Origin: a virus
Lineage: Duplodnaviria > Caudoviricetes
Virus record (IMG/VR): IMGVR_UViG_3300010366_000066
Coordinates: 1 to 24,244 of that record
Direction: 5' to 3' (one strand)
DNA: 24,244 nt
In this document: positions 7,224 through 24,244 of the stretch, piece after piece
How the letters are laid out: each line of letters opens with the position of its first letter
Numbering within the stretch: position 1 is the stretch's first letter
Notes under the pieces: model-generated
What the model saw: only the letters and a program-made list of their open reading frames with translations
Databases searched by the model: none
What the model was told of the DNA's origin: nothing
Program-made: the position numbers and the translations under genes

Positions 7224-7224
7224 T

Positions 7225-9286: not shown

Positions 9287-9301
9287 TTCAGTCCTCCTTT
9301 C

Positions 9302-9670: not shown

Positions 9671-9689
9671 TTCCTACCCTCCTCTCCCG

Positions 9690-10139
9690 TTACTCGGTGG
9701 TTGTCTCTTCGGACTGCTGGGACGCGATGTAATTCTGCACGTCCGTCTTCGTGACACGACCTTCAGCGCCCGTGCCCTCGACATCGGACAGGCTGACGCC
9801 CTCGGCCTCTGCGAGTTCCTTCGCGCCCGCAGTCGCGTTTTCCTCGCCCTCCTCGGCTACGGTCTGTGCCTCGATTTCCTCTTCGGCATCCGTGCCGTAG
9901 TCCTCCGAGAACTGCTCCGCGAGCGGATGATCCACGATGGGCAGCAGCGCTCCTGCCGACGTGAGCGGATCGGGAGAGCCGTACTGCGGTGGCCCCATGA
10001 CGACGGGAACCATGTCCATGTCCTGATCCTCCGGTGAAACGTACGGGTTGTTGAGATTCGGAGACTGGACGAAATTCTCCTGGCCGTACTGGTGTGCAGC
10101 CAACTCCTCTTCGGTCGCGTTCGGGTTCTCGTCGGCCAT
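9690..10139 (-). CDS. acidic protein with C-terminal E3-binding (PSBD) domain
   Basis: ATAGAKELAEAEGVSLSDVEGTGAEGRVTKTDV matches the peripheral subunit-binding domain consensus (A...A..LA.E.GIDL..V.GTG..GRI...DV). Confidence 0.75.
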   Translation of the reverse strand: MADENPNATEEELAAHQYGQENFVQSPNLNNPYVSPEDQDMDMVPVVMGPPQYGSPDPLTSAGALLPIVDHPLAEQFSEDYGTDAEEEIEAQTVAEEGEENATAGAKELAEAEGVSLSDVEGTGAEGRVTKTDVQNYIASQQSEETTTE

Positions 10140-10140
10140 T

Positions 10141-11304
10141 TCAGACCCTTTCCTTGACGCGGATGTTGGACGTGACCGTGCCCGGCTTGTAATCCGTCTT
10201 GCTGCCGTCCGGCTTCGGGGAATTCGTGATGCTGGGTGGCGTGCTCTCCATCTCCGACACGATGGATTTCAGATCGGTGGACGAGTCGATGATTTCACCG
10301 ACGAGCTTGGAGACCGTCTCCTCGTCCTTCTCGGCGTCTCCGGTGAGCTTGACCTCCCTGGAGGCCATCTCCCCGGCGATCAGGCGCGTGACGAGCTTCC
10401 TGTCGCGCTCCTCGCCGCCCTTGAGCTTCTTGTCGAGCACGGTGGCGAGCACGGACGCCCTGAGCGACTTCCCGGCCTTGCGAAGCTCAGCAACCGCTGC
10501 TGAAATTACGTTGACCGGCTCCGCGCTCTCGTCCATGCCGAGAAGCATCCGAAGCTGCGGAATCAGATCGAGCGTCGGCTTGATTTCATCCGCAGTCGTC
10601 TCCATCTCTGAGACCTTCGTCTCCAGCGGCTTCTTCGCCTCGTCCTCGATGCTCTTGACGAGCGCCGGGTTGTGAGCGCGAAGATCGTTCGCAGTGAGCG
10701 CTGCGATTTCCTCCGTCTTCACTTCACTACCTCCCGTCTCCATTTCGGAAGAAAGAGCGCCGACCATCCTGGCGCTCATCCCGGCAGCACGCGGCCGAGA
10801 CAGATCGATGGACTCGATTTGAAATTCCTTGATCCGTACCCCCTTCTCGAAAGGCTCCTGGGCGACTTTGCCTCGCCACGAAACCGTCTGGATGAATTTC
10901 CTTCTCGCGTACTCTCTCGCCTTCGTTCCCGGCAGGACGTACGCCTTGACGGCGAGCCGTGCCTTGTCTCCGACCGAGAGCATCTTCGCCCCGACCCACT
11001 GCAACTGAATTTCAGGAAATGAGTACGGGTCATCCTCGGGGCGAATGTGACCCATGTACCCGACGATTGGCTCCGTCGTCGCAGCGGACGAGATTTCAGA
11101 GGCCACCTGTCCGAAAAGTTCCGGCCCCCAAAACCGCTTCGACTTCGACCACCCGGACTCGATGACGTACGTGGCGAATTTCGGATCATCGTCACCTTCC
11201 GTCACCTGAGCGACGAAATTCGAATCGAGCGGCACCATGCCACCCGCATCGCCCATTTCACCGACCGTGATGGTGAAATCTTCTGTGATGTCCTGAAATT
11301 CCAT
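10141..11304 (-). CDS. capsid maturation protease/scaffold fusion
   Basis: Start moved to ATG 11304 (GGAG SD). N-terminal GWSKSKRFW..YMGH..VSWRG..SIDL protease-like region, then a charged helical scaffold-like C-terminus. Confidence 0.65.
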   Translation of the reverse strand: MEFQDITEDFTITVGEMGDAGGMVPLDSNFVAQVTEGDDDPKFATYVIESGWSKSKRFWGPELFGQVASEISSAATTEPIVGYMGHIRPEDDPYSFPEIQLQWVGAKMLSVGDKARLAVKAYVLPGTKAREYARRKFIQTVSWRGKVAQEPFEKGVRIKEFQIESIDLSRPRAAGMSARMVGALSSEMETGGSEVKTEEIAALTANDLRAHNPALVKSIEDEAKKPLETKVSEMETTADEIKPTLDLIPQLRMLLGMDESAEPVNVISAAVAELRKAGKSLRASVLATVLDKKLKGGEERDRKLVTRLIAGEMASREVKLTGDAEKDEETVSKLVGEIIDSSTDLKSIVSEMESTPPSITNSPKPDGSKTDYKPGTVTSNIRVKERV

Positions 11305-11305
11305 C

Positions 11306-11770
11306 TCAGACTCTCCTGAGGCGCTTGCCCTGGTTCTGGTTGAACAGCGTCCTCGGGATGACATTCGCATGTCCTCTGGACGCCTTGCCCGGAACTTCCT
11401 TCGCCAGATCGCGCTGGCCGAACGCCGAGACGACCGTGGGGTGCTTCGACGGATCGTATTTCGGGTTCGGGTTGTTCGTGAACGTGTCCGCCTCCGGAGA
11501 GAATGTCGCCTGCGTCCTCCCCGTCGCCATGATCCCGGAAACGGAATTCAGGTTGTACGGGTCTCTGACGTAAAGACGCCTAGGCGTTGCCAGCTTTTTC
11601 CGGTATACCTTCGTCAGGACAGTCGGGTCGTGCTTCGACATGTCGATTGCCTGTCCGAATTTCACAGTCCGTCCAGCCTGCGTCGTCTTGTAGGCGTACG
11701 GGTTGTACTGCCGCTTGATCTTGATCTTCGGCGCAGTGAAAGTCGCCTTGACAGTTCTGTAGCGTGCCAT
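11306..11770 (-). CDS. basic hypothetical protein
   Basis: 154 aa, K/R-rich; abuts the upstream stop (TAGATG). Confidence 0.7.
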   Translation of the reverse strand: MARYRTVKATFTAPKIKIKRQYNPYAYKTTQAGRTVKFGQAIDMSKHDPTVLTKVYRKKLATPRRLYVRDPYNLNSVSGIMATGRTQATFSPEADTFTNNPNPKYDPSKHPTVVSAFGQRDLAKEVPGKASRGHANVIPRTLFNQNQGKRLRRV

Positions 11771-11941
11771 CTAGTACCCCCTTCCTCCCTTCGTTCCAAT
11801 TCCCTTCCTGATCCTCACGTTGCTGCCCGCCGGAAAGCCGAAGGCTGTGGGGTTGACCCCAGCCCTGCGAAGCTCCTTCATGTGACGGACTTGCGCGTAT
11901 TTCAGAACCGTCACACTCGCGTTACGGTCGATGAAGGCCAT
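11771..11941 (-). CDS. small basic protein (56 aa)
   Basis: Start MAFIDRN at a TAATG overlap with the upstream gene. Confidence 0.65.
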   Translation of the reverse strand: MAFIDRNASVTVLKYAQVRHMKELRRAGVNPTAFGFPAGSNVRIRKGIGTKGGRGY

Positions 11942-12144
11942 TAGCTCTTTTTCCTCCCTCCTTTGTTCCACTTGCGAGCATTCAGAGCGAACGTTGCACG
12001 ACGACGGGTCTTGGGGTTCTTCGACTTCTTCAACGCCCTGAGCTTGCTGACCGGAATTTTGTTTCCTTTCTTGGTGCCTGCTGTCTTGCGGAGCTTTCCC
12101 CGGTTCGCCTTTTTGATGTAAATTCCGCTCTTGCGACGTGCCAT
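11941..12144 (-). CDS. very basic small protein (IKK...G.L....KIP.SKL...RA.FA type)
   Basis: 67 aa, very K/R-rich; TAATG coupling at both ends. Confidence 0.75.
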   Translation of the reverse strand: MARRKSGIYIKKANRGKLRKTAGTKKGNKIPVSKLRALKKSKNPKTRRRATFALNARKWNKGGRKKS

Positions 12145-12941
12145 TACAGCTTAATCATCCTCCCGTAGAAGCCGAGCGCTGGTGAAATTTTCGCGATTGT
12201 CCTACGCCCGCCGGGAACGGTCGTTACGAGCCGTTGGCCTAGACCTGACGCTGAAGGTGAAATTGGTGGTGTTACTGGCGCTGGGCCAGCCAGAAGAGCA
12301 ACGGCATGACCCATCCACGCCTGGTTGCCTGCCACCCTTGTCCACGTTCCCGCAGCAAGAGTTCCGGGAGCCGCCATCGGAATTTCAGCCAAGGTGATCT
12401 GGCACGGAACACCAGCGTTGCCGACCTCGTACCGCTTCGTATTTCCGGGGTAATCGACGGTGTACTGCGTATTGTCTCCACCCGTTCCGAAAGCGAGAAC
12501 AAGTGAATTCGCGACAGCCACCGTAATCGCAGGAGCTACCGCTGTCAGTGCAACAGAGCCAGCCCCACTGGCACCGGCTCCATCGAGCGCTGATCCCGCA
12601 GCAACGACGTTTGTGTACTGTGCAATTACAGCATCGTAATACACAGCCGCAGCTTGGTCGTTTCCAATCGTGATCGGATCGACTTCCGTGCCGTCGATTC
12701 GCTTGCCCCAAATTCCGAGCTTCTGTCTGCCGCCGAAGCCCCATGCCGGACTCATGTATAGCTGAGTCCAACCAGGTGTGACGACTGTTCCACCAGCCGC
12801 AGGAGTGCCGTTTGGAAATCCGGTGATCGCAGCGACAAGATAATTTCCGACAACCCGAGACCCCGGAAGCGGACAGGTGGTTGTCGTGACCTGTGTCGCC
12901 GTCGTCGTACTGCTCTGGTTGACGAAAGCTGGAGTAGGCAT
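12144..12941 (-). CDS. beta-rich putative virion surface protein
   Basis: 265 aa, Ala/Gly/Thr-rich, TPGWTQL and APAITV..NSLVL motifs; TAATG start. Confidence 0.65.
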   Translation of the reverse strand: MPTPAFVNQSSTTTATQVTTTTCPLPGSRVVGNYLVAAITGFPNGTPAAGGTVVTPGWTQLYMSPAWGFGGRQKLGIWGKRIDGTEVDPITIGNDQAAAVYYDAVIAQYTNVVAAGSALDGAGASGAGSVALTAVAPAITVAVANSLVLAFGTGGDNTQYTVDYPGNTKRYEVGNAGVPCQITLAEIPMAAPGTLAAGTWTRVAGNQAWMGHAVALLAGPAPVTPPISPSASGLGQRLVTTVPGGRRTIAKISPALGFYGRMIKL

Positions 12942-13084
12942 TATCTCCCTCTCACCCTCCTTGACCGTCTACGACCCACGGCAGCAGCTACCTGCTTGGG
13001 ATTTTTCAGTCCAGCGATCTTCTTCCGCTTCGAACCCTTGACGCGGAATTTCCTTCTTCTGCCTGCCCCTGCACGGTTAGCCAT
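12941..13084 (-). CDS. protamine-like 47-aa protein MANRAGAGRRRKFRVKGSKRKKIAGLKNPKQVAAAVGRRRSRRVRGR
   Basis: Not in ORF track. It exactly fills the gap: ATG overlaps the portal end and TAA overlaps the next ATG. Confidence 0.7.
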   Translation of the reverse strand: MANRAGAGRRRKFRVKGSKRKKIAGLKNPKQVAAAVGRRRSRRVRGR

Positions 13085-14570
13085 TTTTTCCTGACTGTGG
13101 AACTATCGACGGCTGGTTCGTAGGAGCAGGCAGAGCATCAGGTGGCGACTTCTCCTGTGCAGGCGATCCCATCACCGGCAGGAATTGAGCGATCATCCGC
13201 TGGTACGTAGCATCTGAAATCTCTCCTCTTGCCCTGGCAACCTCCAGCCCCATGACTAGCTGCTGAAATGCCTGCATGACGACGACCTGATCGTCGGCTC
13301 TGACAATTTCCCAGGTGATCTTCGCCTTCACCGGGATTGAACCGGTTGCAACGAGCACCATTTTCAGAAGCTCCTGAACGGGCTTCTGATACACCTTCCG
13401 CTTGCGCTCGATCTTCTTGACGAACGGAACGGTCTGAGCGTTCCTGTCGGAGTTTGCAGAGCCGGAATCCACCCGCATGAACGCCCACTCCGGAGTTTGA
13501 GAGGCTATGCAGATGCAGTCAAGGATGAATTCCGCCAGGACTTTCGTGTCACCCAGCACGGAGGTAGCCTCCAAGAACCCGGCGTCCTCGTCCGGCTGGA
13601 GGAAAAGAATTTCACGTCCCTCGTACGAGACTTCCGCCTTCGTCTTCAACTGCCCCGTGTCGGGATCGATCAACTCGGGGTAATTGTTCTGGGCGAACGG
13701 AAGGAAGTCCTTGATCTTGAACTTCACCTTCGGCGTCGAGTGGTACTTGTGAGCTTGCAGGCCCTGGACGAGAACTTCGTGGAATGCATCGATGAACGGA
13801 ATTACAGGCTCGATATCCGACTGCCCGCCCTGGAGGTATGCCTCCCATTCGTTCGTCACTTCCAGAACCGGAACGAAACCCCAAGGGTTAGCCGCAGCCA
13901 ATTCATCGATCCACTCGTCCCTATGTTTGTCGAAGAACGTGTAATCCTGGGGTGTGATGATTTCAAGAACTTCGTGCTCCTCGACAACAGGATCGAGACC
14001 TGTCGTCGGATCACCTTCTGAAATCACCATCGTCATACGGTGTGAAATCAGAGCCTTCTCGATGACCCGCCTGTTCGCCACGTTGCGCTCGATGGTGACA
14101 AGATCGGGCACGATGATTTCAAGCGCACAGTGCTCCGCTTCATCGAGCGTCATCAGCATGTCTTTCACATCCGGCCGCTGGAGACGGACGATGGTCTTCG
14201 AATCCCGCATCGAGTCACGGAGCATCTGCTGAATTTCATCCGTCCAGTACGTTCGGATGCACTCGTTCAGGAATTTGTCGGTGACATCGTTACCCGTCGA
14301 GGCGATTGGCGTTCCGACAAACGCGGTCTGAAGGTCGATGATCGGCTTCACGAAGCCTGCGCCGAGAGCATTCTCCCCGGCGTTGCGGTACATCGTCCGC
14401 ATTGCCTCGTAATTCACCATCGTTCCCTCTGCCCGTGGGTGTCTCGTCCAGAACGAGAACGATGCACCGAACGGGCGGAAGGTCGAGCGTATGCCGGTGA
14501 AATTCACCCAGCCCATCGGGATGGCGATCTGCTCGGAAACCCAGTGCGCCGCTGACTTAATTTTCCCCAC
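13077..14570 (-). CDS. portal protein (SPP1 gp6-like)
   Basis: 497 aa; NPWGFVPV..V.N...GQSDIEPVI..IDAF and ..SQTPE motifs typical of SPP1-type portals; follows the terminase genes. Confidence 0.85.
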   Translation of the reverse strand: MGKIKSAAHWVSEQIAIPMGWVNFTGIRSTFRPFGASFSFWTRHPRAEGTMVNYEAMRTMYRNAGENALGAGFVKPIIDLQTAFVGTPIASTGNDVTDKFLNECIRTYWTDEIQQMLRDSMRDSKTIVRLQRPDVKDMLMTLDEAEHCALEIIVPDLVTIERNVANRRVIEKALISHRMTMVISEGDPTTGLDPVVEEHEVLEIITPQDYTFFDKHRDEWIDELAAANPWGFVPVLEVTNEWEAYLQGGQSDIEPVIPFIDAFHEVLVQGLQAHKYHSTPKVKFKIKDFLPFAQNNYPELIDPDTGQLKTKAEVSYEGREILFLQPDEDAGFLEATSVLGDTKVLAEFILDCICIASQTPEWAFMRVDSGSANSDRNAQTVPFVKKIERKRKVYQKPVQELLKMVLVATGSIPVKAKITWEIVRADDQVVVMQAFQQLVMGLEVARARGEISDATYQRMIAQFLPVMGSPAQEKSPPDALPAPTNQPSIVPQSGKNG

Positions 14571-15165
14571 TCGACTCCTCCACCGGCTCCTCGACGGATT
14601 TCACCAGAAGTTCCTCTAGGCGCTCGATGATTTGGGCTGCCTCCTCCTGAACTTCCGGAGACGCCTCACGAAGTTTCTCCACCAGTCCATCATCTGTTAC
14701 CGTCACCCTCTCGTCGTTGATGCTATGGCGCTCTTGCCTGGAGGACTTGGGCAGTCCTGCACGGTCGAGAATTTCACCGGCAGCCTGGAGGATATATCTG
14801 TCGTCGGCCGAAGAGCGCATGACATCCACGATTGCCTGCACTGCCTCGATCATGTAGCCGTGCAGCAGATCGAGCGCAGCTTGGGGGAGGCGCTGACGTA
14901 GGCCGACGAGAAGTTCCTTCGCCTCGGGAGTGTCGAGGAATTCCCTGACCTGACCCCTTGAAATTCCGATGATCTGAGACATCTGTGTTCGGGAGTAGCC
15001 GCCTAGCTGGAGGATCACGCACATGACGATGACGTGAGACTCCTCGAATTTCATCAACCGCTTGCGGGTACGCAGACCCTTCTTGTACCTCCGACGCACA
15101 CGGTTGACTTCCAGCTTTGCATCCCTTGCTCTGACCGCTGGAGTGAATTTCTTTTGAACGGGCAA
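14557..15165 (-). CDS. HTH protein, terminase small subunit-like
   Basis: HTH YSRTQMSQIIGISRGQVREF plus AVQAIVDVM...LQAAGEILDRAG oligomerisation-type motif; TTG start with GGAGG SD. Confidence 0.55.
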   Translation of the reverse strand: MPVQKKFTPAVRARDAKLEVNRVRRRYKKGLRTRKRLMKFEESHVIVMCVILQLGGYSRTQMSQIIGISRGQVREFLDTPEAKELLVGLRQRLPQAALDLLHGYMIEAVQAIVDVMRSSADDRYILQAAGEILDRAGLPKSSRQERHSINDERVTVTDDGLVEKLREASPEVQEEAAQIIERLEELLVKSVEEPVEESSGEN

Positions 15166-15173
15166 CGTTCCTC

Positions 15174-16856
15174 CTAGCGAGAGGCGATCACGTTCGTATT
15201 CATCCTTGACGAGAATCCACCCGGAACGTGCAGCGGTGGATTCGTAAGACCAGCAACTGTCGCAAACATGCAGGCGTGGTGCCAGTGGTCGGGGTTCTTA
15301 TTTCGTTTCCAGCGGGCGATCAGAATTCCCCTGGTGTTTTCCTCTTCGACCCTGGCTTGCTGGATCATCTGATGGTAGACCCCGTTGTAGTCTTTGCGGG
15401 GAAGATGCTCACCAAGCTCTCTGGCAGAATACGGAAGCCGTGCCAGTCCATTCATGAACTCACCGATGACAGTATCGAACGCGAGGGTACGGTCGATCTT
15501 GACTTCCGGAGCTTCCTTGTATTTCACTTGCCCGAAGTGAGCAATTTCCCCTTGCTGATCCCTGTCCTGCTCGAATCCCATATACAGACGTCCGTGATAT
15601 TTCAGAGCGAGTTCTCGGGATTTCGACTTCTCCGGATGGGCGTCGATCACTCCGACCCACTGCGGGAGGGAGGAGAGCCACTTGTCGAGTTGGTCGAAGT
15701 TCTGAAATATCTTGACGTTCCACAGCCTGCGGACGTTTTGTGCTTTCGTCCAGCACCAGGCGTGGATCATCGTGCCCACGTCAATTCCGATCTGGAGGTA
15801 CGACGAGGGGATACCACCGACCTCGTATCGCTCCCTGCAACTGTCGAGGAGTTCCACGGTGAACCTGTCACCGACCGCCGTGAAGGGGAGACCCATCGAC
15901 TGATTCCAGAAAGCCTTCATGTATTTCACTTCCCGAAGGCCCTTGAAATAGTCACGCATGATTTCAGGGAGAGTCTGCGTGGGGGAGTTGAACTGGTTGA
16001 TGTGGTATCCCCTCGTATCTCCGTCTGGGTTGTACGGTGTCCAGCGCCCGAGTGCGTTCAGGAATGGGCGCTCCTCATCGGTGAACTCCCGATTACAGAA
16101 CGCACATTCCAAAACGCAGTCGTGACGGTCATTGCCGACTTTCAGGTTGTTGTAGTCGAGGGCCTTGTCGTTCCAGTTGAGAGACTGAAATCTGTTACAG
16201 CCTGGGCAGGGAATTTCCCATCTATGTTGGTCTGAGAAGTCCCATGCATCGTCCGAGTAGATTCCATGCCCATCTACTGTAGGAGTAGAGAGCATGACGA
16301 GCTTCTTGATATGCGAGCCGTCCATACGATGTCGGGCATCACCGAGATTTTCCTCGACCATCCGGTCTCGCTCGTCCCAGACCTGAAAATCGACGGGAAC
16401 CTCTTGGAGTTCGTTCTTGATGTTCGTGCCTCGGATGTAGAGATTGAATTTCTTTGCGGACTGCTTGTGCAGCCGGTTGTCCACGGCCTTGAATTCTTGA
16501 GCGAGCAGGGGGTTCGACTCGATCATCGGGTCGATGCGTCCCTGCACGAAAGGCACTGCGCCAGTTTTCAGAGGAAGGAGGTAGAGGACGTTCCATCCAC
16601 GGACGGCGACAGCGTGGAGAGATTTCACCAACATCGTCACGGTGAACCTCATCTGAGCCGCTTTGGGAATTACAATCTCGGGCGAGTAATCCCTGATCAC
16701 CTGACGGACGTATTCGCCTCTTTCGAGAGTGAACTGGTGTCCATCCACTCTCAATTCCATGTCGAGCGCCCATTCGTCGGGACGCGCAAGGTTCCGCACC
16801 GATCTTCCTGCGGCGGCACGGGCAGCGCTACGCGGCATGGTTAGCGGCTTTGTCAC
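15174..16856 (-). CDS. terL: terminase large subunit, lambda GpA family
   Basis: KAAQMRFT (Walker A-like), WDERDRM (Walker B), STPT, CPGC/CAFC zinc motif, GYHINQFNSP, GIDVG nuclease, PDHWHHA. The start may be ATG 16838. Confidence 0.9.
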   Translation of the reverse strand: MTKPLTMPRSAARAAAGRSVRNLARPDEWALDMELRVDGHQFTLERGEYVRQVIRDYSPEIVIPKAAQMRFTVTMLVKSLHAVAVRGWNVLYLLPLKTGAVPFVQGRIDPMIESNPLLAQEFKAVDNRLHKQSAKKFNLYIRGTNIKNELQEVPVDFQVWDERDRMVEENLGDARHRMDGSHIKKLVMLSTPTVDGHGIYSDDAWDFSDQHRWEIPCPGCNRFQSLNWNDKALDYNNLKVGNDRHDCVLECAFCNREFTDEERPFLNALGRWTPYNPDGDTRGYHINQFNSPTQTLPEIMRDYFKGLREVKYMKAFWNQSMGLPFTAVGDRFTVELLDSCRERYEVGGIPSSYLQIGIDVGTMIHAWCWTKAQNVRRLWNVKIFQNFDQLDKWLSSLPQWVGVIDAHPEKSKSRELALKYHGRLYMGFEQDRDQQGEIAHFGQVKYKEAPEVKIDRTLAFDTVIGEFMNGLARLPYSARELGEHLPRKDYNGVYHQMIQQARVEEENTRGILIARWKRNKNPDHWHHACMFATVAGLTNPPLHVPGGFSSRMNTNVIASR

Positions 16857-16889
16857 CTGACGGGGGCGATCCGGTGAACGCCCGCCGGG

Positions 16890-16918
16890 ATTTTACTCGC
16901 TGCGCTGAATTAGGTCAA
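16890..16918 (-). promoter_or_regulatory. sigma70-type promoter for the terminase/structural operon
   Basis: TTGACC-N17-TAAAAT on the minus strand, followed by a GC-rich leader hairpin. Confidence 0.7.
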
Positions 16919-16929
16919 ACCAGGGTTGA

Positions 16930-17403
16930 CTAGATGCAGCCTCGGGACTCCATGTAATTCAGCCATTTTTCAAGCGACCAGTTGGGGTTCGGAACGACCT
17001 GAATTTCACCGGTCTTGAGGAGGTATTCCTTCCCCAGCGCCATGAGGATGATTTCAGCCCTGGAGTAGCCGACCGTCAGCTTGTCTCCATGCAGCACGTA
17101 GGAGAGGAACCTGATCGGTACCCTGGAGCCTAGACGGGCAGTCTCCTCCTCTATGTATTGGAGGGGGCCAAGGAAGATGTTCGCGGAGTTGAAATCGAGA
17201 CCATCCTTGGGGTACTCGATTTCCCAACGTTGCTGAAACTTACGTATTTCCTCGGCGATCTGAAATCCTGGTACCACCTCTGCCTCACCGGCAGAGTTGT
17301 AATTCTCCTTGGGAGATGGGAATGGGATGACGTTATTTTCAGTTCTCTCCTTATGAATTCTTGTCGTCTGGATGGATGGCCTGTAGCCTTTTATTCCCGG
17401 CAT
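16930..17403 (-). CDS. putative HTH DNA-binding protein
   Basis: ATG 17403 with GAGG SD; VPIRFLSYVLHG..TVGYSRAEIILMALG resembles an XRE-like HTH C-terminal half. Confidence 0.5.
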   Translation of the reverse strand: MPGIKGYRPSIQTTRIHKERTENNVIPFPSPKENYNSAGEAEVVPGFQIAEEIRKFQQRWEIEYPKDGLDFNSANIFLGPLQYIEEETARLGSRVPIRFLSYVLHGDKLTVGYSRAEIILMALGKEYLLKTGEIQVVPNPNWSLEKWLNYMESRGCI

Positions 17404-17545
17404 GGCGAAGTTCCTCAAGTTGATCGACAAGCTCGCGATTGATCGTCTGAGTCTCTACGAGTGTAATCGCGAGAGAGACGACGGTATCCCTGAGCGCAGT
17501 GATTTCACGCTCAAGGATTTCACATCTGCGGCGGTAGTCCATCAT
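17351..17545 (-). CDS. small coiled-coil protein
   Basis: 64 aa, heptad pattern; ATGA overlap with the upstream membrane ORF. Confidence 0.55.
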   Translation of the reverse strand: MMDYRRRCEILEREITALRDTVVSLAITLVETQTINRELVDQLEELRHAGNKRLQAIHPDDKNS

Positions 17546-17640
17546 CGATAGCAGAAATACCAGATGACGAAGCAGGCGATAATCGAGGGCAGGACGATGA
17601 CGAGGCAGAGCACGATCCAGGCAAAGAGCACCCAGTCCAT
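17542..17640 (-). CDS. 32-aa single-pass membrane peptide MDWVLFAWIVLCLVIVLPSIIACFVIWYFCYR
   Basis: Not in ORF track; TAATG start overlap and ATGA end overlap. Confidence 0.65.
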   Translation of the reverse strand: MDWVLFAWIVLCLVIVLPSIIACFVIWYFCYR

Positions 17641-17912
17641 TACCCCTCGCCTACAGGAGGATGTATCGGAAAGACAGCGAGCTTCTGGCCGTTGACGGCA
17701 AGCAGAGCTTTGAGGTGGATGAAAATATCCCCGACTGCCTCGGCATCGTCCTCGTAGCCGTGCATCGCCATTCCCCCGTTGTCACCATCGGAGATGAAAA
17801 CGATGAGCCTGTCTTCCGGGGTAATTCTGGGGTCGTTAGCGAACTTGCTGATGAGCATGTCGCAGACGTGGGTTATTCTGTCGTGAGGCTTATCGGAACG
17901 AGTGGGTGTCAT
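17640..17912 (-). CDS. hypothetical protein
   Basis: 90 aa; coupled at both ends. Confidence 0.65.
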   Translation of the reverse strand: MTPTRSDKPHDRITHVCDMLISKFANDPRITPEDRLIVFISDGDNGGMAMHGYEDDAEAVGDIFIHLKALLAVNGQKLAVFPIHPPVGEG

Positions 17913-18100
17913 TTCTTCTTACGCCTCACCCGGTGCGAGCCTTTTGAATAGACCGAGTTCGCCTTGGCGACTGCGGTTTTTCCACGGCCATACTGGTTCG
18001 CCTTCGCGTAGAAGATGGAAGTCCCTTTTTTCTTCCCGTACGTTTTCCTCATCCGGGCCAGGGCTTTCTTCGACCCCTTGCTGTACGCCGAGCGTGGCAT
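17909..18100 (-). CDS. small basic protein (K..M.K.YG.KKG..IFYA..N type)
   Basis: AAGGAG SD before ATG 18100; motif familiar from small basic phage proteins. Confidence 0.7.
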   Translation of the reverse strand: MPRSAYSKGSKKALARMRKTYGKKKGTSIFYAKANQYGRGKTAVAKANSVYSKGSHRVRRKKK

Positions 18101-18251
18101 TTTCACTCCTTGATCTTACGAGCCGTTCATACGCCATTCTACGACAGCCGTCGGCGTCTTCACAGAACGGCATGGTGCCAAGTGTCTCGTAGTCGATGGT
18201 GAGGTATTTCGGTCTGGTCAAGATGGAACGTCCGCACAGAGCACATTTCAT
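17919..18251 (-). CDS. putative zinc-finger protein
   Basis: CALC...CEDADGC with AGGAG SD; the 3' half overlaps the basic gene in another frame. Confidence 0.45.
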   Translation of the reverse strand: MKCALCGRSILTRPKYLTIDYETLGTMPFCEDADGCRRMAYERLVRSRSENATLGVQQGVEESPGPDEENVREEKRDFHLLREGEPVWPWKNRSRQGELGLFKRLAPGEA

Positions 18252-18290
18252 TTTGGAACTCCTGTCGGAATGGGGGAGGGATTTTCATCA

Positions 18291-18443
18291 CTACTGCTCC
18301 GGGGCTGGTGCCTCTTCCTCCGGAGGCCCCTGCTCTCCCTCGGGGTCATCCACGATTTCCTCGATGGGCTGTTCGTCGGGATTGTGCTCCAGCGGGGGAG
18401 CCTCCTCCTCGGGAGCCTTTTCCTCTTGTGGGGTCTCAGTCAT
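18291..18443 (-). CDS. 50-aa acidic Pro/Glu-rich protein
   Basis: GGAGGTG SD before ATG 18443; PEEEAP occurs twice. Confidence 0.65.
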   Translation of the reverse strand: MTETPQEEKAPEEEAPPLEHNPDEQPIEEIVDDPEGEQGPPEEEAPAPEQ

Positions 18444-18702
18444 TTTCACCTCCTTCCGACTTCGGTTGCAAACGTTCGAACTTCCGATAGCCCTTCCAGC
18501 GGTGAATTTCACCTTTAGGCCCTTTACCGGGAATCCACGTAGGCCAGGGAGCCAGGATTTCATCAATGCATTCGAAAGGATTTTCATCGGTGGAGCCTAC
18601 AGCACGGAGGAAATCCAAGGTGGTCGAGTCCATTTCATCGAGGGTTGACTCTTTGGAAATCCCGATGACCGTGAAGCTGAATTCCTGGACGTTTGAAATC
18701 AT
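18436..18702 (-). CDS. hypothetical protein, first gene of the leftward unit
   Basis: 88 aa; AAGAGGATC directly before the ATG. Confidence 0.6.
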   Translation of the reverse strand: MISNVQEFSFTVIGISKESTLDEMDSTTLDFLRAVGSTDENPFECIDEILAPWPTWIPGKGPKGEIHRWKGYRKFERLQPKSEGGEND

Positions 18703-18720
18703 GATCCTCTTAGGACGGTG

Positions 18721-18751
18721 AAATTAAGGGGAGGCCCTGGCGAACCTCCCC
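18721..18751 (-). terminator. terminator/attenuator-like hairpin in the leftward leader
   Basis: GGGGAGG-10nt-CCTCCCC-TTAATTT on the minus strand, between promoter and first gene. Confidence 0.45.
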
Positions 18752-18789
18752 CTGTGTAGAGGCCGACAGTCAAGTCGGTCGGCACCGTG

Positions 18790-18818
18790 AGCTTACAGGG
18801 TGGCTGATGGCTCGTCAA
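18790..18818 (-). promoter_or_regulatory. leftward promoter
   Basis: TTGACG-N17-TAAGCT. Confidence 0.6.
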
Positions 18819-18949
18819 GGGCGTCTCAGGAGGCCCGTAGAGGCCCCCTGAAGCGATTGAACCCCCTGGAGGTGACCCCAAGACCCCACAAGGGGGTCTA
18901 GAACACTGGCGGGATGAAATTGGTTTGAGGCCGTTTTGGGGTCGATTGA

Positions 18950-19760
18950 GGTTCTGGAATGAAATCTTGAGACATGTTGATTGGTCGTCAACATATGGGT
19001 CTTATCCGGGGTCGTTCTGACATTTGATCTGAAATCTGTAACAGGGCTTCGGACAGGGCTTTTGATTTCACTTAAACTGAAAACTATATTTCACTCCCAA
19101 GGGGCATTCTGAAATCTGAAAATTTTCACTAAAACTGAAAAATAATTTACATTCTAGCCCCGCCGGGAAATCGTCCTCCAGACCCTCGAATTCCTGAAAT
19201 CCGGTTGGCTCAACCATGCGATTTCAGAGGCTCTGGTGCGGTCTGTCACTTGGCTCAACCATGCGGGTTTGAGGCTATTGTGCTGAATTTCACAATGGGG
19301 GTGTAATTTCACTTACTGGAGGGAGTTCGAAATTCATTACAGAGGGTCGGTACTGAAATTGAAACGACCGTGGATAGGCTCGGCCTAGGATCGAGGACAG
19401 AGAGCAGGGGAGAGAGCATGGGACAGAGGGATTCCCCCTGCCCGCCGAACAGGCTCTGACTGTAATTATCGAGTGGAATCGAAGAGCATGGATTCCCTAG
19501 GCTCCCCAATTGCCTGGCGGCTTTCATCCCTGCGAGGATTTCAGAGGGTCTCGCATACCCTCCGAGGAAATTCTTCCGGCCGTGGATTGCCTGTTCTGGA
19601 ATCAGAGAATCGACGCAGGGACAGAGGGGTCTCTCAGTGAAATTCCCTGAGGGGTCTCTGAGGCTCTCCGGAGGGGTCGGACAGGGGAATTCTCACCCCT
19701 GAGGCTCCGAGGCTCTCAGAACGGCTCAGAATGCCTCGGAGGGGGTCTCTGTTTCCGATG
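18950..19760. repeat. non-coding control region with AT-rich tract and short direct repeats (possible origin or packaging site)
   Basis: AAACTGAAAA x2 in an AT-rich tract; TTGGCTCAACCATGCG at 19205 and 19250; GGACAGRG at 19051, 19395, 19421, 19619 and 19679; GAGGGGTC repeats. Confidence 0.55.
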
Positions 19761-19785
19761 GCTGCTAGCGGAATCCTTCCCGCTC

Positions 19786-19814
19786 TTCCGGAGCCGATGA
19801 AATCCTGCTACCTT
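19786..19814 (+). promoter_or_regulatory. rightward promoter with extended -10
   Basis: TTCCGG-N17-TACCTT with TG at -15/-14; the TGCTAC core recurs at 23547-23555, 23882-23890 and 24236-24244 on the minus strand. Confidence 0.5.
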
Positions 19815-19847
19815 GGGGTCTCGGCCGGAGGTTCGAATCGGCCGGAA

Positions 19848-19860
19848 GAACCTTGAAAAC
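19848..19860 (+). promoter_or_regulatory. boxA-like antitermination element 1
   Basis: GAACCTTGAAAAC, similar to Gram-positive rrn boxA (GnTCTTTGAAAAC); preceded by a hairpin at 19821-19845. Confidence 0.55.
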
Positions 19861-20042
19861 CTAGGTCTCCGAAACGGCCATTAGACCGCGTGGCTGCATG
19901 CCTCTTTGCGGGCCGTTTCGTCAGAGACCTAGCGCTACTCAATCGGCGCGCTCCCGTAGGCATTCGTCGGGCATCTGGCTCTACGCATGAACTAACGATG
20001 AATGGACGAGAATCTGAAAACCTGCGGAGTCGGTTGAGAGTG
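19861..20042 (+). ncRNA. structured leader RNA (two abutting domains)
   Basis: Domain 1: CTAGGTCTC/GAGACCTAG plus CGAAACGGCC/GGCCGTTTCG (19861-19932). Domain 2: CTCAATCG/CGGTTGAG, CGTAGG/CCTGCG and CATTCGTCG/CGATGAATG with G-U pairs (19933-20042). Confidence 0.65.
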
Positions 20043-20054
20043 AACCTTGAAAAC
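20042..20054 (+). promoter_or_regulatory. boxA-like antitermination element 2
   Basis: Exact second copy of GAACCTTGAAAAC. Confidence 0.55.
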
Positions 20055-20058
20055 CAGA

Positions 20059-21499
20059 CAGAGTGTGCGTTCAATCCATCCCCTCGGGGGGTTCTTTTCA
20101 TACCCTGAGAGGATCGAAACGAATGCACAATCCATACCGCCCTGGCGCGAATCGTTTCTACATCGCGGAACAGGCAATCGCGGGCAAGTCTCAGAGCGAG
20201 ACGTTCAACGCTCTTCGGCCGATGGTCGAGAGCGAGACTCTCGTCTTCAAACGGAATCCGACTCGGAGTGAGAAGGCTATGGGTATCACTACCCGTATCC
20301 CCCTCGCTTCGAAGGCTCTCCAGCTACAGGCTCTCCGCGATGAAATCGGACGGGTCTATCACGTCCTCGGATTGTCCATCGGACGCAAGTTCGATGAGCA
20401 GGAAATTCCGAGGATTCCGACCCCTCCGACCCCTGAAATCCCGATGGAAGAGGCTCCGGTTCCCGACGAAATTCCGACCCCTGAAGAGGAGCCGGAAGAC
20501 GAGGAGATTCCGGAGGCTCCGGAGACGCCTATCGCCAAGGGCAAAATGAAGATCAGGGAAGAGGTTAACTACTTCATTCGGCGGTGCAATGAAATCCGCG
20601 ACAGAATCGCGGATAGAGTCCGACTTGGTGAGACTGCTCTGGACTGGATTTCAAACCGTCCTTCGCAGGCTGCCATTCGGCTCATTCCGAAAGGCATTCC
20701 CGCCGATGCCCTGCTCTACACTATGACGCTCCATTGGAGTGCGGATAGTCGGCAGTCCTACGGGATTTCCGATTATGACATGGTGGCACTGTCCAAGTCC
20801 ATCATGGAAGAGCGGAATATCACTGAAATCGTCCGCAAGGATGGCAGGGTCGAGAGACCACATGTGATGTTCGGTTACGTCCTCACTCTGGCGGAATGTC
20901 GAATCCCCATTTTCCTGGTCGGTGAATTCGGGACTGGAAAGTCCTGGCTAGCCGGTCAAATCGCCGATTACCTCGGCGTGGATTACGGGGAGACGCCGAT
21001 GTGTCTCGGCGCTACTAGAGGTGATTTGCTCGGAAGATTTACGGCGAATCCCGATCAGGCTTTCATCGCTGCTCGGTTTGCTGAAATCTACGGGAATGGT
21101 GGAGTCTTCAACTTCGAAGAGTTCGACGCGGGAGACCCTGGACTGCTCATTGTTCTGAATAACGCAATGGCAGGGAATCACTTCTACAACTCGATGAACG
21201 GTGACATGATCGAAAGGTCTCCGGAATTCATCGCTGTAGCGACCGGAAATACGTACGGTTATGGCGCGAATACCCGCTACACGGCTCGGGAGCACCTCGA
21301 CGAGGCTACTCTCGACCGTTGGCGCATGGGTCGCGTTTGGGTCGATTTCGACCGTGACTTGGAACAATTCCTGGCCGATTCCTACCTGGATTCGATCGGA
21401 ATTTCCAAGTAGTCTCGATCCCGCTCTCTGAGCGGGTTTGCAGTACCTAGGGCACAAGATGCCCGACCCCCTGAGGGGATGAATTGAGCGCACACTCTG
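20059..21499 (+). repeat. inverted-repeat pair 1 enclosing the AAA gene (20059-20093 / 21465-21499)
   Basis: 35 positions pair as RNA, with 3 G-U wobbles and one C-A mismatch. Confidence 0.9.
20123..21412 (+). CDS. MoxR/CbbQ/CobS-like AAA+ ATPase
   Basis: GEFGTGKS Walker A, FNFEEFD Walker B, ATGNT sensor, LDEATLDRW Arg finger; acidic Pro-rich linker; start moved to ATG 20123 (GAGAGGA SD). Confidence 0.9.
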   Translation: MHNPYRPGANRFYIAEQAIAGKSQSETFNALRPMVESETLVFKRNPTRSEKAMGITTRIPLASKALQLQALRDEIGRVYHVLGLSIGRKFDEQEIPRIPTPPTPEIPMEEAPVPDEIPTPEEEPEDEEIPEAPETPIAKGKMKIREEVNYFIRRCNEIRDRIADRVRLGETALDWISNRPSQAAIRLIPKGIPADALLYTMTLHWSADSRQSYGISDYDMVALSKSIMEERNITEIVRKDGRVERPHVMFGYVLTLAECRIPIFLVGEFGTGKSWLAGQIADYLGVDYGETPMCLGATRGDLLGRFTANPDQAFIAARFAEIYGNGGVFNFEEFDAGDPGLLIVLNNAMAGNHFYNSMNGDMIERSPEFIAVATGNTYGYGANTRYTAREHLDEATLDRWRMGRVWVDFDRDLEQFLADSYLDSIGISK

Positions 21500-21501
21500 A
21501 A

Positions 21502-22621
21502 ATTCGGTAGCTCGCTCATTCAGGGTTCTTCCGGAGAGCGAGTAGAGAATGAAAACCATGCGAGCACGGTATGCAGGTTACTGCACGCGGTGCAAGGGTC
21601 GAATCAGAGTAGGCGAATCGATGGTCTACCTCGGAAAAGGGAAGACGTTCCATCCCCTCTGCTACAGGGGGGATGAAAACGGAGATTCCCCGGAGGCTCC
21701 GACTATCGATGTTCCGCCGAAACGGCCGACACTTCCGCCGCAAAGAGGACTGAAGACGTTCACCGTGGATTGGGGAGAGTTGAAACAGAATCTCCTCGCA
21801 GCATTCCGCGACGATTTCAGAGCCTTTCCTCAACATGCCTCTGAGGTGAAATCTCACCTAGTCCATCCCAATGAAGGATGGCAGGGATACGGCGGAGAGG
21901 ACTGCAAACGGTGGCTAGAGTCTGGTTACAACTCCGACGCGATTAGGAATCTCGGTGACTTCACTCCTCCCCTCCGAAAGAAACGGCGAATCCGTTTCGT
22001 GGAAGAGGGGGATGAATTTCACTATGACCTGGCCGCTTCGGGAGCCGATAACTTCATGAGTGAGTGGACTCAACGGGAGAGAATTCCGGGGATGAAAATC
22101 AACATCGCTCTAGGGTTCTCGGCGGACGTCTCTGAGACCGTCCTGAATCGCTATGCGAAGTGGGTATGCAAGGCGATTTATTCCGTCATCGATATCGGGA
22201 TTGATCCTGAAATCTCGATTCACTACACGGCGGACAGGATGGTGGAAGGGGAAGAGGGGCCGCACGATACCCGAATCCGAGTGAAGAAAGAGCGCGAGGT
22301 GATGGATTTCCAGTCCTTCTCCGCAATGCTCTCTCCTGCTCAATTCCGGGCCTATATGTTCTGCGCGATGTATCTGCATTGCGAGAGCAGGGGTCGGAAG
22401 ATTACGGGAGGTCACGGTACGTCAAGTCGGTTCTTCACTCAATGGGGAGTCGATTGGGATAAAGAGCAGGAAATGCTCTACATCCGCTGCAACTATGGCG
22501 GATACGGATTCTCCGAGGAAACAATGGAGAGTCAACTCAGAGCAGCGTTGAAGGAAATGGCTAGCTAGTCCAGCCAGGAATTACAATTCAGGGGGAACCC
22601 TGAATAAGCGAGCTATCGAAT
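21502..22621 (+). repeat. inverted-repeat pair 2 enclosing the VWA-like gene (21502-21532 / 22591-22621)
   Basis: 31 positions pair, with 3 G-U wobbles and one C-A mismatch. Confidence 0.9.
21549..22568 (+). CDS. degenerate VWA/CobT-like partner of the AAA ATPase with N-terminal Zn ribbon
   Basis: ARYAGYCTRC...HPLC N-terminus; EEGDEFHYDLAASG, INIALGFS and SPAQFR motifs; typical pairing after a MoxR ATPase. Confidence 0.6.
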   Translation: MKTMRARYAGYCTRCKGRIRVGESMVYLGKGKTFHPLCYRGDENGDSPEAPTIDVPPKRPTLPPQRGLKTFTVDWGELKQNLLAAFRDDFRAFPQHASEVKSHLVHPNEGWQGYGGEDCKRWLESGYNSDAIRNLGDFTPPLRKKRRIRFVEEGDEFHYDLAASGADNFMSEWTQRERIPGMKINIALGFSADVSETVLNRYAKWVCKAIYSVIDIGIDPEISIHYTADRMVEGEEGPHDTRIRVKKEREVMDFQSFSAMLSPAQFRAYMFCAMYLHCESRGRKITGGHGTSSRFFTQWGVDWDKEQEMLYIRCNYGGYGFSEETMESQLRAALKEMAS

Positions 22622-22686
22622 ACGGAATTCCGGAGAGCAGCGGAGAGGATTTCATCCTGAGAGAACGCACACTGAAAGGATCGAGA

Positions 22687-22929
22687 ATGTTCTACGCTTT
22701 GCTTCCCCGGCCGGACGGTTCAATCTTCTACCTGAACCTGTCCGGAATCTACCTCGAATCGGACGCGAATTTCAAGCTGTCTGAGACGCTCGAATCAATC
22801 ACGAATTCCATCGAGAACGTTCGGTGGGATTTCCTGATCGATACGGAAATGTTCCCGTCACTCGAAGAGTATCGGGAATTCCCGTGCTATCGGATGCCCG
22901 ATGGTGTCCTGCGCTGCGAGGGGTGCTGA
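22687..22929 (+). CDS. hypothetical protein
   Basis: 80 aa; AAAGGA SD; Cys-rich C-terminus. Confidence 0.65.
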   Translation: MFYALLPRPDGSIFYLNLSGIYLESDANFKLSETLESITNSIENVRWDFLIDTEMFPSLEEYREFPCYRMPDGVLRCEGC

Positions 22930-22931
22930 GA

Positions 22932-23027
22932 ATGGACTCTGAGAGCCTGTTCTGGGCAATTTCAGCGGCACCTATCGTGCTCGCCTACCTCGTCTGGTAC
23001 CTCTGGTCGAATTTCCTCGATTACTAG
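22932..23027 (+). CDS. 31-aa membrane peptide MDSESLFWAISAAPIVLAYLVWYLWSNFLDY
   Basis: GAGGGG SD, ATG 2 nt after the upstream stop, one hydrophobic helix. Confidence 0.55.
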   Translation: MDSESLFWAISAAPIVLAYLVWYLWSNFLDY

Positions 23028-23103
23028 CCTGAAACAGCGCTAGAAAGTCGGAGAATTTCCTACCCCCTCTCCGCTGCTCTCCCGAATTCCGAATTTCATT
23101 TTC

Positions 23104-23140
23104 AGCCCGGAGGCAATTCCCGCTCCGGGCTTTTTTATTT
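23104..23140 (+). terminator. intrinsic terminator of the rightward operon
   Basis: AGCCCGGAG/CTCCGGGCT stem followed by TTTTTATTT. Confidence 0.85.
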
Positions 23141-23454
23141 CCCCGGCTGTTGTCAGAACGGACAACTCGGAGAGCGGAGAGATTAGGTTCGGCTCGGCCG
23201 TGCGAGGATTCCAGAACTACCCTCGGAATGAATTCCTCGCAATTCCCCCTCCCCCTCGCGAGAGCGCGTAATGCGGGAGGCAATTCCGGGTTTTCACGGA
23301 GCGGGATTTCGAGGAAATTCAAACCGGATTTCAGCGGGAAAGGGATTTCGAAAGATTTCGGAATTTCAGGTGTCGGCATTCCGGAGCGAATTGCGGTCGA
23401 GCAGGCGACGGGGGAACTGACCAAAGGCTTCGTGGAAAAATGCTTGCGGCGCAC

Positions 23455-23541
23455 AAAAAGAGAGCGCCCTTTCGGACGCTCCCTTCATCCTGAGAGGATC
23501 GTTCTGCCGCCACGCCGGGAGGATCAGACCCGAACGTTGCT
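23455..23541 (-). ncRNA. candidate antisense sRNA 1 (~87 nt)
   Basis: Own promoter (23547-23574) and terminator GGGAGCGTCC-GAAA-GGGCGCTCTC-TTTTT (23455-23483); carries CGAUCCUCUCAGGAUGAA, complementary to gene leaders. Confidence 0.65.
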
Positions 23542-23546
23542 CCTAT

Positions 23547-23574
23547 AGCGTAGCAGAGCTTAGACGGCCGTCAA
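23547..23574 (-). promoter_or_regulatory. promoter of sRNA 1
   Basis: TTGACG-N16-TACGCT with extended TG. Confidence 0.65.
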
Positions 23575-23818
23575 ACGGCCTCTGTGCGCCTTGTGGGGTC
23601 TCTCTACTAGGGGAGCATGGTGCCAGGAGCCATTCTAAGGGGTCTAGAAGGCGTCGCTAGCGTCGATGAATGTCGGAGTCCAAGTGAGGGGGTCGAAGCG
23701 CTCAGATCGCAAATTTCGAAGTCGAAGTCCGAAGTGCGAATTCGGGCAAGTGCCGATCCCGACCCCCCGGCCTTGTTTGTGGCAATTCACACAAGTGAAT
23801 TCACTCTGTCCTGAAATG

Positions 23819-23876
23819 AAAAAACCCCCGGCCTTGTGAGCCGGGGGTCTGTTCTCCGGAGAGCGAGTCCGGGAGC
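23819..23876 (-). ncRNA. candidate antisense sRNA 2 (~58 nt), or 3' UTR of the 98-aa gene
   Basis: Same TCTGCTACGCT -10 box (23882-23892); terminator ACCCCCGGC/GCCGGGGGT plus U-run (23819-23848); carries ACUCGCUCUCCGGAGAAC. Confidence 0.55.
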
Positions 23877-23892
23877 TTGCGAGCGTAGCAGA

Positions 23893-24189
23893 CTAGGGCT
23901 TGTAAATCCAGTCTGGCTTGGGCTGGAGGATTCCCTTCTCGACCAGACCGTCCGAGAACACGGTGTCCTTGCGGAGCGCGTCGATGCGGGAAGCGTAGAC
24001 CCAGTGATCGGGCTGCGCGGCGGTGAGGAAGCGATCCACGTTGAAATTCGGGTTCGTCTCCTTGAGCGCGTCCACGAAGGCGAGCCGCATGCCCGCCATG
24101 TGCGAGTGCTGCATGGTGTCGTCCGGGGAGATGCGCTCGGCCTCGGCCTTAAGCACGTCCGCGATAAGCTGAAAGTCCTTCTTGGTCAT
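23893..24189 (-). CDS. conserved small phage protein (MT.KDF..IA....NP.F...RF type)
   Basis: 98 aa, GAAAGGAAG SD, TGCTACTGT extended -10 at the window end. Confidence 0.75.
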   Translation of the reverse strand: MTKKDFQLIADVLKAEAERISPDDTMQHSHMAGMRLAFVDALKETNPNFNVDRFLTAAQPDHWVYASRIDALRKDTVFSDGLVEKGILQPKPDWIYKP

Positions 24190-24244
24190 GTCTTCCTTTC
24201 GTCTTGGGCGCTGCCTCTAGCGCCTCAGTGATCGTACAGTAGCA

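Follow-up and report, generated by a model that had tools for sequence, protein, structure and literature searches.

In the sections of a 2025 review that were available to us (PMC12197685), nearly all phage RNAs acting on genes of the phage itself are cis-antisense, and the targets of trans-acting phage sRNAs are mostly host mRNAs. Among the former, sar of P22 and OOP and aQ of lambda are cis-encoded RNAs that repress genes of their own phage by pairing and serve the choice between lysis and lysogeny (PMC12197685). A trans-encoded RNA that blocks the ribosome-binding site (RBS) is known from mycobacteria, where the host RNA B11 reads the G-rich SD (PMC10470900).

The start-associated sequences (SAS) of Cluster K phages consist of a phage-specific motif over or upstream of the SD of many non-structural genes (PMC3203893, PMC11373665). 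In four phages a single SAS has the opposite orientation and is not tied to a gene start (shown in Fig. S3 of Pope et al., 2011), and whether its partner is RNA or protein was left open (PMC3203893). The role of SAS was still called unknown in 2024 (PMC11373665), and the parts of the two papers available to us propose no RNA partner (PMC3203893, PMC11373665).

Other described systems depend on the folding of the message. In the type I toxin-antitoxin (TA) system aapA/IsoA of H. pylori, the SD is hidden during transcription, the mRNA later refolds into a translatable state, and the antisense RNA is directed against that state (PMC6733600). The early mRNA of T7 is a polycistronic transcript with double-stranded signals between its genes, which is processed by RNase III (PMC3867540); determinants of RNase III have been described (PMC1540722, PMC3867540). 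In the icaR mRNA of S. aureus, an anti-SD in the 3' UTR ahead of the terminator pairs with the 5' UTR (PMC3868564).

Here we describe sRNA 2, an antisense unit on the minus strand of a 24,244-nt stretch of DNA from an uncultured, probably soil-borne phage, the whole of which is referred to as the window. We consider it probable that sRNA 2 is a trans-acting phage sRNA of about 58 nt, which blocks translation of an early cassette mRNA via the RBS of a VWA-like gene, and very likely that the RNA pairing between its seed and this leader is under selection. Our literature search, incomplete in subscription papers and supplements, found no published phage trans sRNA directed against leaders and no published gene-enclosing stems.

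The cassette operon and its setting

The terminase, portal and capsid genes of the window are encoded on the minus strand. The plus strand holds a non-coding stretch followed by genes for an AAA_5 (MoxR/CobS-like) ATPase (429 aa, 20123-21412), a DUF7192 protein (339 aa, 21549-22568), which is the target gene, and an 80-aa protein (22687-22929), with a 31-codon ORF behind the latter (22932-23027). An extended -10 promoter-like element (19806-19814, plus strand) belongs to this cassette operon. A 98-aa gene on the minus strand (23893-24189), having a promoter-like box at 24236-24244, faces the operon and lies upstream of sRNA 2.

The ATG at 21549 is supported as the start of the target gene because homologues of its protein are 339-342 aa long. 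The sequence-only reading had called this gene VWA, and profile, homologue and structure-model matches support the name in part: the protein belongs to Pfam DUF7192, its structure model (pLDDT 85) strongly matches phage DUF7192 proteins, and the top fold matches beyond these are NorD VWA domains, but the latter are weak (best E 9e-4; about 1e-3), and we regard 'VWA-like' as a fair name for what the model suggests. A MoxR-vWA pair in jumbo phages has been proposed to aid virion assembly (PMC7824862). The closest homologues share 56-75% identity; single-protein searches of viral contigs did not find close relatives, and no prophage was found in a genome collection. The style of the promoters and SD sequences would suggest an actinobacterial host. 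The reads of three DNA sequencing runs, two of which cover little of the window, contained no variant over seed or target.

Further features of the window were observed outside the antisense unit. The 5' leader of the operon (19820-20058) is structured (z -3.75 for 19820-19950) and contains a T-loop-like GGTTCGAATC hairpin as well as two copies of GAACCTTGAAAACC (at 19848 and 20042), which we take to resemble the boxA antitermination signal of rRNA. In the virion region, a 793-aa protein (2780-5161) has a globular insert flanked by numerous imperfect repeats, each about 15 codons long and with YxV motifs. Seven homologues match 57-61 residues of the 98-aa protein, which is thus longer than the matched part by some 40 residues, and the extra part of its gene (23893-24015) contains the weak -35 of sRNA 2; the loci of these seven homologues have neither an AAA/VWA operon nor a similar antisense unit.

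Architecture and predicted transcription of sRNA 2

The predicted RNA (23817-23876, minus strand) is about 58-60 nt long, with a putative start near 23876 and an end in the U tract. Box, seed and terminator follow one another in this order: the box TCTGCTACGCT (23882-23892), an extended -10 promoter-like element (TG-n-TACGCT), stands directly after the stop of the 98-aa gene, the antisense seed (23851-23868) has a perfect core of 14 nt (23855-23868), and an intrinsic-terminator-like hairpin of 12 pairs, 8 of them G-C, is followed by the U tract (23822-23850). This layout had been described as shared with a sibling unit, sRNA 1 (23455-23557, minus strand), and all of its parts were indeed present there, including the identical box; sRNA 1 also has TTGACG at 16 nt upstream, its own terminator and no ORF. 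It had further been noticed that part of the seed forms the loop CUCGCUC of a 5-bp CCGGA/UCCGG hairpin (23856-23872). The hairpin is found in the MFE fold, but the stability of this 5' domain does not exceed that of shuffled sequences (z -0.42, 73/200 shuffles equally good) and a similar hairpin is not evident in the units of relatives, for which reasons the seed-in-loop hairpin was rejected as a defining trait. A search with Rfam covariance models over 23817-23892 gave no match at E up to 1, and elsewhere in the window three sub-threshold matches.

Within the searched sequence, the minus-strand copies at 23892 and 23557 are the only occurrences of TCTGCTACGCT. The shorter pattern TGCTAnnnT is present four times in the window (both strands), each time before a transcription unit, namely the cassette operon (19806), the 98-aa gene (24244), sRNA 2 (23890) and sRNA 1 (23555), and relative G001 has four such boxes with TTGACA 17 nt upstream that lead into genes. 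Since all window copies precede units and the G001 boxes carry TTGACA, the box is most likely the early promoter of the family, and TCTGCTACGCT would be a promoter element outside the RNA itself. A sigma-70 consensus scan listed neither the sRNA 1 nor the sRNA 2 promoter. The -35 candidate of sRNA 2, TGGATT (23905-23910, minus strand), located 17 nt from the -10 and inside the 98-aa gene, is weak (3/6).

No terminator lies between the stop codon of the 98-aa gene (23893), right after which the box starts, and the seed, and therefore read-through RNA should carry the seed too. The hairpin at 23822-23850 would end the mRNA of the 98-aa gene as well, and the 58-nt RNA and the read-through mRNA are both expected to end at 23822-23817. 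The lack of a terminator before the seed and the weak -35 would also fit a real pairing that involves no separate sRNA, the seed acting only as the 3' UTR of an mRNA of about 410 nt from the 98-aa gene, or of a fragment cut from that mRNA, and in L009, L024 and the L042 unit at 4022 the seed is found 6-15 nt past a stop codon with no -10-like hexamer nearby. We nevertheless judge this unlikely, as the 11-nt box is identical to that of the ORF-less sRNA 1 with its TTGACG, TGCTAnnnT is as rare in the window as stated above, and in the units of L038, L045 and L059 the seed is preceded, at a distance of 22-53 nt, by extended -10 elements. The L012 unit likewise has its own -10.

Predicted pairing of the seed with the leader of the VWA-like gene

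The seed region 23851-23868 (GTTCTCCGGAGAGCGAGT) repeats 21525-21543 (GTTCTTCCGGAGAGCGAGT) in the leader of the VWA-like gene, with an exact core of 14 nt (23855-23868 / 21530-21543) and 5 nt beyond a 1-nt gap, confirming the repeat reported from the sequence alone. The target on the plus strand covers the leader and RBS of the gene, its core lying at -19 to -6 from the ATG, and is 2.3 kb from the sRNA 2 locus. Seed and target are on opposite strands, so the minus transcript is antisense to the leader, as had been claimed, and pairing is possible in trans alone. The opposite strand, the position of the core and the concerted change of seed and leader described below together support the original proposal of a trans antisense unit aimed at this RBS.

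The match is the longest exact repeat between 23100-24244 and 18700-23100. Among 2,456 sites within about 19.3-24.2 kb, the leader of the VWA-like gene ranked first for a 22-nt seed query (-33.2 compared to -28.2 kcal/mol for the next site), and it ranked second for a 34-nt query against the whole window (-36.7 compared to -36.9 kcal/mol for a site at 8081); both rankings refer to sites inside the 24,244-nt window, and further targets may lie elsewhere in the phage genome. The region is rich in CCGGA and GAGAG motifs, and the seed region has a further 19 matches of 9-11 nt in the window, which could raise the suspicion of a dead duplicated leader or a chance match. However, none of these exceeds 11 nt, and in a control with 3,992 35-mers (window 1-19990, both strands), the longest match to the three cassette leaders was 11 nt, 0/3,992 reaching 12 nt. 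Moreover, the same position and orientation are found in 12 relatives with different sequences, a comparative pattern by which an accidental or dead repeat appears largely refuted already, and we hold it to be extremely improbable.

A 3' UTR anti-SD ahead of a terminator is a trait that sRNA 2 shares with icaR, but icaR pairs within one mRNA, while the sRNA 2 seed and its target are on opposite strands (PMC3868564). Some minus-strand early genes in relatives carry the same leader motif, and cis pairing would be possible there. In the window, by contrast, seed and target do not share a strand, and pairing with the leader of the 98-aa gene itself reaches just -11.8 kcal/mol, compared to -35.8 kcal/mol for the leader of the VWA-like gene; a seed folding back on the leader of its own mRNA is the least probable of all readings that we considered. 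Nor does the unit resemble a cis-encoded antisense RNA, which overlaps its target locus with full complementarity, as it occupies a separate locus and shows a gapped 19-nt match.

Gene-enclosing stems and the predicted state of the RBS

The transcript of the cassette operon is predicted to form long-range stems, of which stem 1 (20059-20093 / 21465-21499) lies around the AAA_5 gene and stem 3 (22623-22648 / 23066-23091) around the 80-aa gene. The left and right arms of stem 2 are at 21502-21532 and 22591-22621 in the MFE fold of 19821-23140. Alignment-based scans gave 57 loci, of which 53 including the window (L016) remained after four duplicates had been dropped, some rows still representing the same phage. 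A long inverted repeat encloses the AAA or VWA gene in 43 of these 53 loci, window included, and the remaining ten loci either belong to distant homologues or lie on truncated contigs. Different phages have arms of unrelated sequence. In 46 ungapped stems, the non-Watson-Crick pairs comprised 57 G-U, 23 A-C and 30 others (binomial p 2e-4 for G-U vs A-C), and the excess of G-U over A-C points to RNA on the plus strand; together with the MFE stems, it supports the long duplex on the transcribed strand that an RNase III stem would need. RNase III signals of T7 are local hairpins, and rRNA stalks are the pre-rRNA counterpart. The operon resembles the T7 early transcript in being polycistronic with double-stranded signals between genes, but differs in that each gene of the operon is predicted to be looped out by a long-range stem of 25-40 bp.

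Variations of this arrangement were noted elsewhere. The AAA stem of L008, L012, L050 and L053 reaches further upstream to include an additional stretch or gene, and in L012 the stems are nested. The cultured Gordonia phage Sephiroth, which has a distant AAA gene, shows similar promoter-like boxes and no long enclosing stems; at its right end (L065), TGCTAC(G/A)(C/T)T promoter-like boxes are repeated around the AAA and DUF7192-like genes. In the window, the left arm of stem 1 can alternatively fold into a terminator-like hairpin with trailing U residues, immediately upstream of the AAA RBS (20078-20102), a possible attenuator.

The left arm of stem 2 contains a predicted cis anti-RBS, GCTCGCTC (21510-21517, plus strand), which as GCUCGCUC in the unfinished transcript is predicted to pair with GAGCGAGU (21536-21543). 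Opening the RBS was calculated to cost 12.4 kcal/mol with the left arm free and 2.0 kcal/mol with the arm locked, and the RBS is predicted to be open once stem 2 has formed. None of 40 arm shuffles was as occluding as the real window arm, and the left arm was predicted to occlude the RBS more strongly than 90% of its shuffles in 15 of 22 loci (window and 21 relatives). Hiding of the SD in the nascent mRNA, followed by refolding into a translatable state that an antisense RNA opposes, is what the locus would have in common with aapA/IsoA. Type I TA mRNAs (aapA/IsoA, hok/sok) have long-range 5'-3' pairing as well, but in the window such pairing is predicted to free the RBS, not to hide it. The products also differ, being an AAA ATPase and a VWA-like partner (the target a protein of 339 aa) instead of small toxins, and the antisense RNA has no gene overlap.

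The loop of sRNA 2 and the left arm of stem 2 share the heptamer CUCGCUC, and the target overlaps this arm by 8 nt (21525-21532), an overlap that had been noted before. A cofold of sRNA 2 with the stem-closed leader model gave no binding, the algorithm being unable to pair into an enclosed loop, and opening-energy calculations, which are able to treat such a loop, were used in its place. With stem 2 formed, the net binding energy was predicted to be -14.9 kcal/mol when pairing comprised the 14-nt core, compared to -13.3 kcal/mol when it was limited to the 11 exposed nt and -10.1 kcal/mol when the full 19-nt site was invaded. A block of translation is likelier than an effect on processing, because the best predicted pairing leaves most of stem 2 intact. 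The contrary reading, that the RNA pairs with the leader but mainly alters folding, processing or decay (by invading stem 2, by creating an RNase III site or by activation), would account for the 8 nt of the target inside the arm, for the position of one sRNA 1 site on an SD-hiding strand (see below) and for the many relatives in which the exact match ends upstream of the SD or at its start. Full invasion is, however, predicted to be about 5 kcal/mol worse than binding of the core, the core covers -19 to -6, and a duplex of 14 bp is short for RNase III, making this reading quite unlikely in our view. An action of sRNA 2 on an arm of stem 3, to which it has a 10-nt match at 22629, was rejected, since opening there costs 25.1 kcal/mol.

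sRNA 1 and coverage of the cassettes

The seed of sRNA 1 has just two other matches of at least 9 nt in the window, one in the AAA leader adjoining the start (20104-20116) and one in the cassette-3 leader at -36 to -24 (22651-22663). Pairing with the AAA leader continues past a bulge with G-U pairs (24 pairs). The site on cassette 3 sits on the strand predicted to pair with the SD of that gene (22651-22685), and because of this position sRNA 1 may activate cassette 3 instead of repressing it. The suggestion that the two sRNAs cover all three cassettes holds insofar as all the leaders are matched, but uniform repression does not follow from it, given the site at -36 to -24.

Concerted change of seed and leader among relatives

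Antisense units were sought in 23 of the 53 loci, chosen for defined stem arms and DNA behind the operon. The window has, behind its operon, a minus-strand seed with a hairpin within about 15 nt, and 12 of the 22 relatives proved to have such a unit too (L008, L009, L011, L012, L024, L035, L038, L042 with two units, L045, L046, L054 and L059). No unit was found in the other ten, five of which have less than 1 kb of downstream DNA; for the remaining five (L032, L044, L048, L049 and L053, with 1.2-4 kb downstream), a looser search that also took in L010, L013 and L057 gave nothing convincing. Two seed copies (5424 and 5456) are present in one 3' region of L035, and the two units of L042 are separate (4022 and 5007). 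A structural alignment of 15 units revealed little common sequence beyond seed and terminator.

The seeds follow the leader of their own phage: CCGACAG in L008, L009, L011, L012, L035 and L045, CCCGAC in L024, CCAGGGA, CTCAGGGA and CTTCAGGGA in the group of L038, L042 and L046, GAATAGGGGATCG in L054 and CTAGAGAAAGG in L059. The seed classes CCGACAG, CAGGGA, GAATAGGGG and CTAGAGAAAG, as well as the two types of the window, are located on different branches of the VWA tree, where the CAGGG group forms a clade with support and L054, L059 and the window each have a derived type of their own, the window's branch being long and its placement unsure. This distribution indicates at least four concerted changes of seed and leader.

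Since the first search picked seeds by their match, we also ran a seed-blind, terminator-first test. Eight of 21 terminators carried at least 9 nt antisense to the cassette leaders of their own locus (6/19 without the window's terminators), compared to 4/320 comparisons in which the leaders belonged to other motif classes; as the rows are related, the significance is overstated by the Fisher p of 2e-8. The terminator finder missed the units of 6 of the 12 relatives, owing to weak U tails or imperfect stems. In a cross-pairing matrix, again with seeds picked by match, the leaders of the own phage came first for 9 of 16 seeds (mean -24.4 for own and -15.7 for other leaders), most of the remaining seeds ranking a phage that shares their motif class higher. 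Duplex energies of chance sites were better than those of the leaders in several relatives, and in L012 and L035 the VWA leader itself matches just 6 nt.

In the relatives G001, G002 and G004, one conserved motif, different from SAS, precedes many gene starts and has one reversed copy. Among the motif copies listed for the whole genomes G002 (19 copies) and G004 (15 copies), just one in each, the copy in the antisense unit, has no ORF behind it together with an antisense hairpin-terminator; the same survey did not pick up the unit of G001. The leader motif in relatives also precedes minus-strand early genes, and one seed could therefore serve a regulon there. The four visible early leaders of the window differ and have no common tag.

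A short repeat near promoters and gene starts has the look of an operator, and Pope et al. left protein binding open beside RNA binding for SAS (PMC3203893), so that the repeat might be read as an operator- or stoperator-like DNA or RNA site for a protein, with base pairing irrelevant. We regard this as very unlikely, considering that the ORF-less copy is reversed relative to the terminator in every unit found, that the sequence of the repeat changes freely along with the leaders, and that the pairing of sRNA 1 with the AAA leader passes the bulge with G-U pairs. On these comparative grounds, 23817-23892 is best described as a real and evolutionarily maintained antisense unit.

Further units were observed that do not match cassette leaders. 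A second promoter-seed-terminator unit of L011 (10660-10693, minus strand) has a seed matching AAGGGAAGAGA, which precedes two other minus-strand genes of that locus (5535 and 4491), and by its sequence this is a precedent for tandem sRNAs with different targets. Promoter-plus-terminator units without a match to cassette leaders are also found on the minus strand of L045 (2868-2960), with the identical TCTGCTACGCT box, and of L011 (10483-10601).

Discussion

From its location apart from the target, its short complementarity to the initiation region and a pairing kept through change, sRNA 2 is predicted to work like a trans-encoded RBS-blocking sRNA. It is similar to B11 (PMC10470900) in having a short RBS-complementary seed and a terminator-like hairpin of its own, in being encoded away from its targets and in its predicted repression, but the seed of sRNA 2 reads a co-changing, phage-specific tag on the phage's own genes. 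Like sar, OOP and aQ (PMC12197685), it would repress genes of its own phage by pairing, but in contrast to these RNAs it is encoded 2.3 kb away, with a pairing of 14-19 nt, and the three complete relatives gave no integrase match.

We propose that host RNA polymerase transcribes the AAA-VWA-small gene operon early. Until transcription of the VWA cistron is complete, the left arm of stem 2 would fold over the RBS and keep it off; when the right arm emerges, stem 2 would close, free the RBS and turn translation on. Closed stem 2 probably marks the cassette for RNase III-type cutting, which would leave a stable, end-paired mRNA; this cutting is inferred from the length of the stems and from the analogy with T7 and pre-rRNA. 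In the last step, sRNA 2 would accumulate, both through initiation at its extended -10 promoter and as the 3' end portion of the mRNA for the 98-aa gene, and would re-cover the RBS with the same heptamer, switching it off again. Its pairing would begin at the exposed GAGCGAGU, and no more than about 3 bp of stem 2 would be opened. A single seed would serve a tag common to many leaders in most relatives, while in the window the leaders would have diverged and two RNAs would split the job.

The likely purpose of such a circuit would be a delayed shut-off of otherwise long-lived early messages in the lytic cycle. The three complete relatives contain no tyrosine integrase, resolvase or ParA family match (3/3), which favours early lytic shut-off or silencing of superinfecting kin over lysogeny, and a role in lysogeny is disfavoured accordingly.

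The closest unexplained case is that of SAS, with which the relatives G001, G002 and G004 share a leader tag before many starts and one reversed copy, the motif differing from their tag. In the AAA-VWA phages the reversed copy is opposite to the operon strand and before a terminator, and the tag of the window is split into gene-specific leaders, unlike SAS. Within 30,000-59,646 of Adephagia we counted 15 sense SAS copies and one reversed copy, the latter (L078 28683-28695, record 58,682-58,694) predicted to lie in the loop region of a long hairpin on the plus, transcribed strand between genes 92 and 93. The fold makes the reversed SAS of Adephagia a candidate anti-SAS RNA in a culturable phage. 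It is conceivable, although we would put it at somewhat less than even, that these phages possess an RNA-only timing circuit for early genes, in which stem closure licenses each cistron and releases a stable end-paired mRNA, a co-evolving sRNA reading a private tag then silences it, and the same logic explains the actinophage SAS including the reversed Cluster K copy. If this were true, tag and seed would form a lineage-specific address, which could silence superinfecting kin too.

In conclusion, trans regulation of the phages' own early mRNAs, through tags that co-evolve with the sRNA, appears to operate across an entire family of uncultured phages, in which at least four mutually distinct tag-seed classes are present. 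The family gives a direct, testable hypothesis for start-associated sequences, for which the reversed SAS of Adephagia offers a culturable case in M. smegmatis, and its tag-seed pairs are natural candidates for orthogonal translational switches in Actinobacteria-like hosts.
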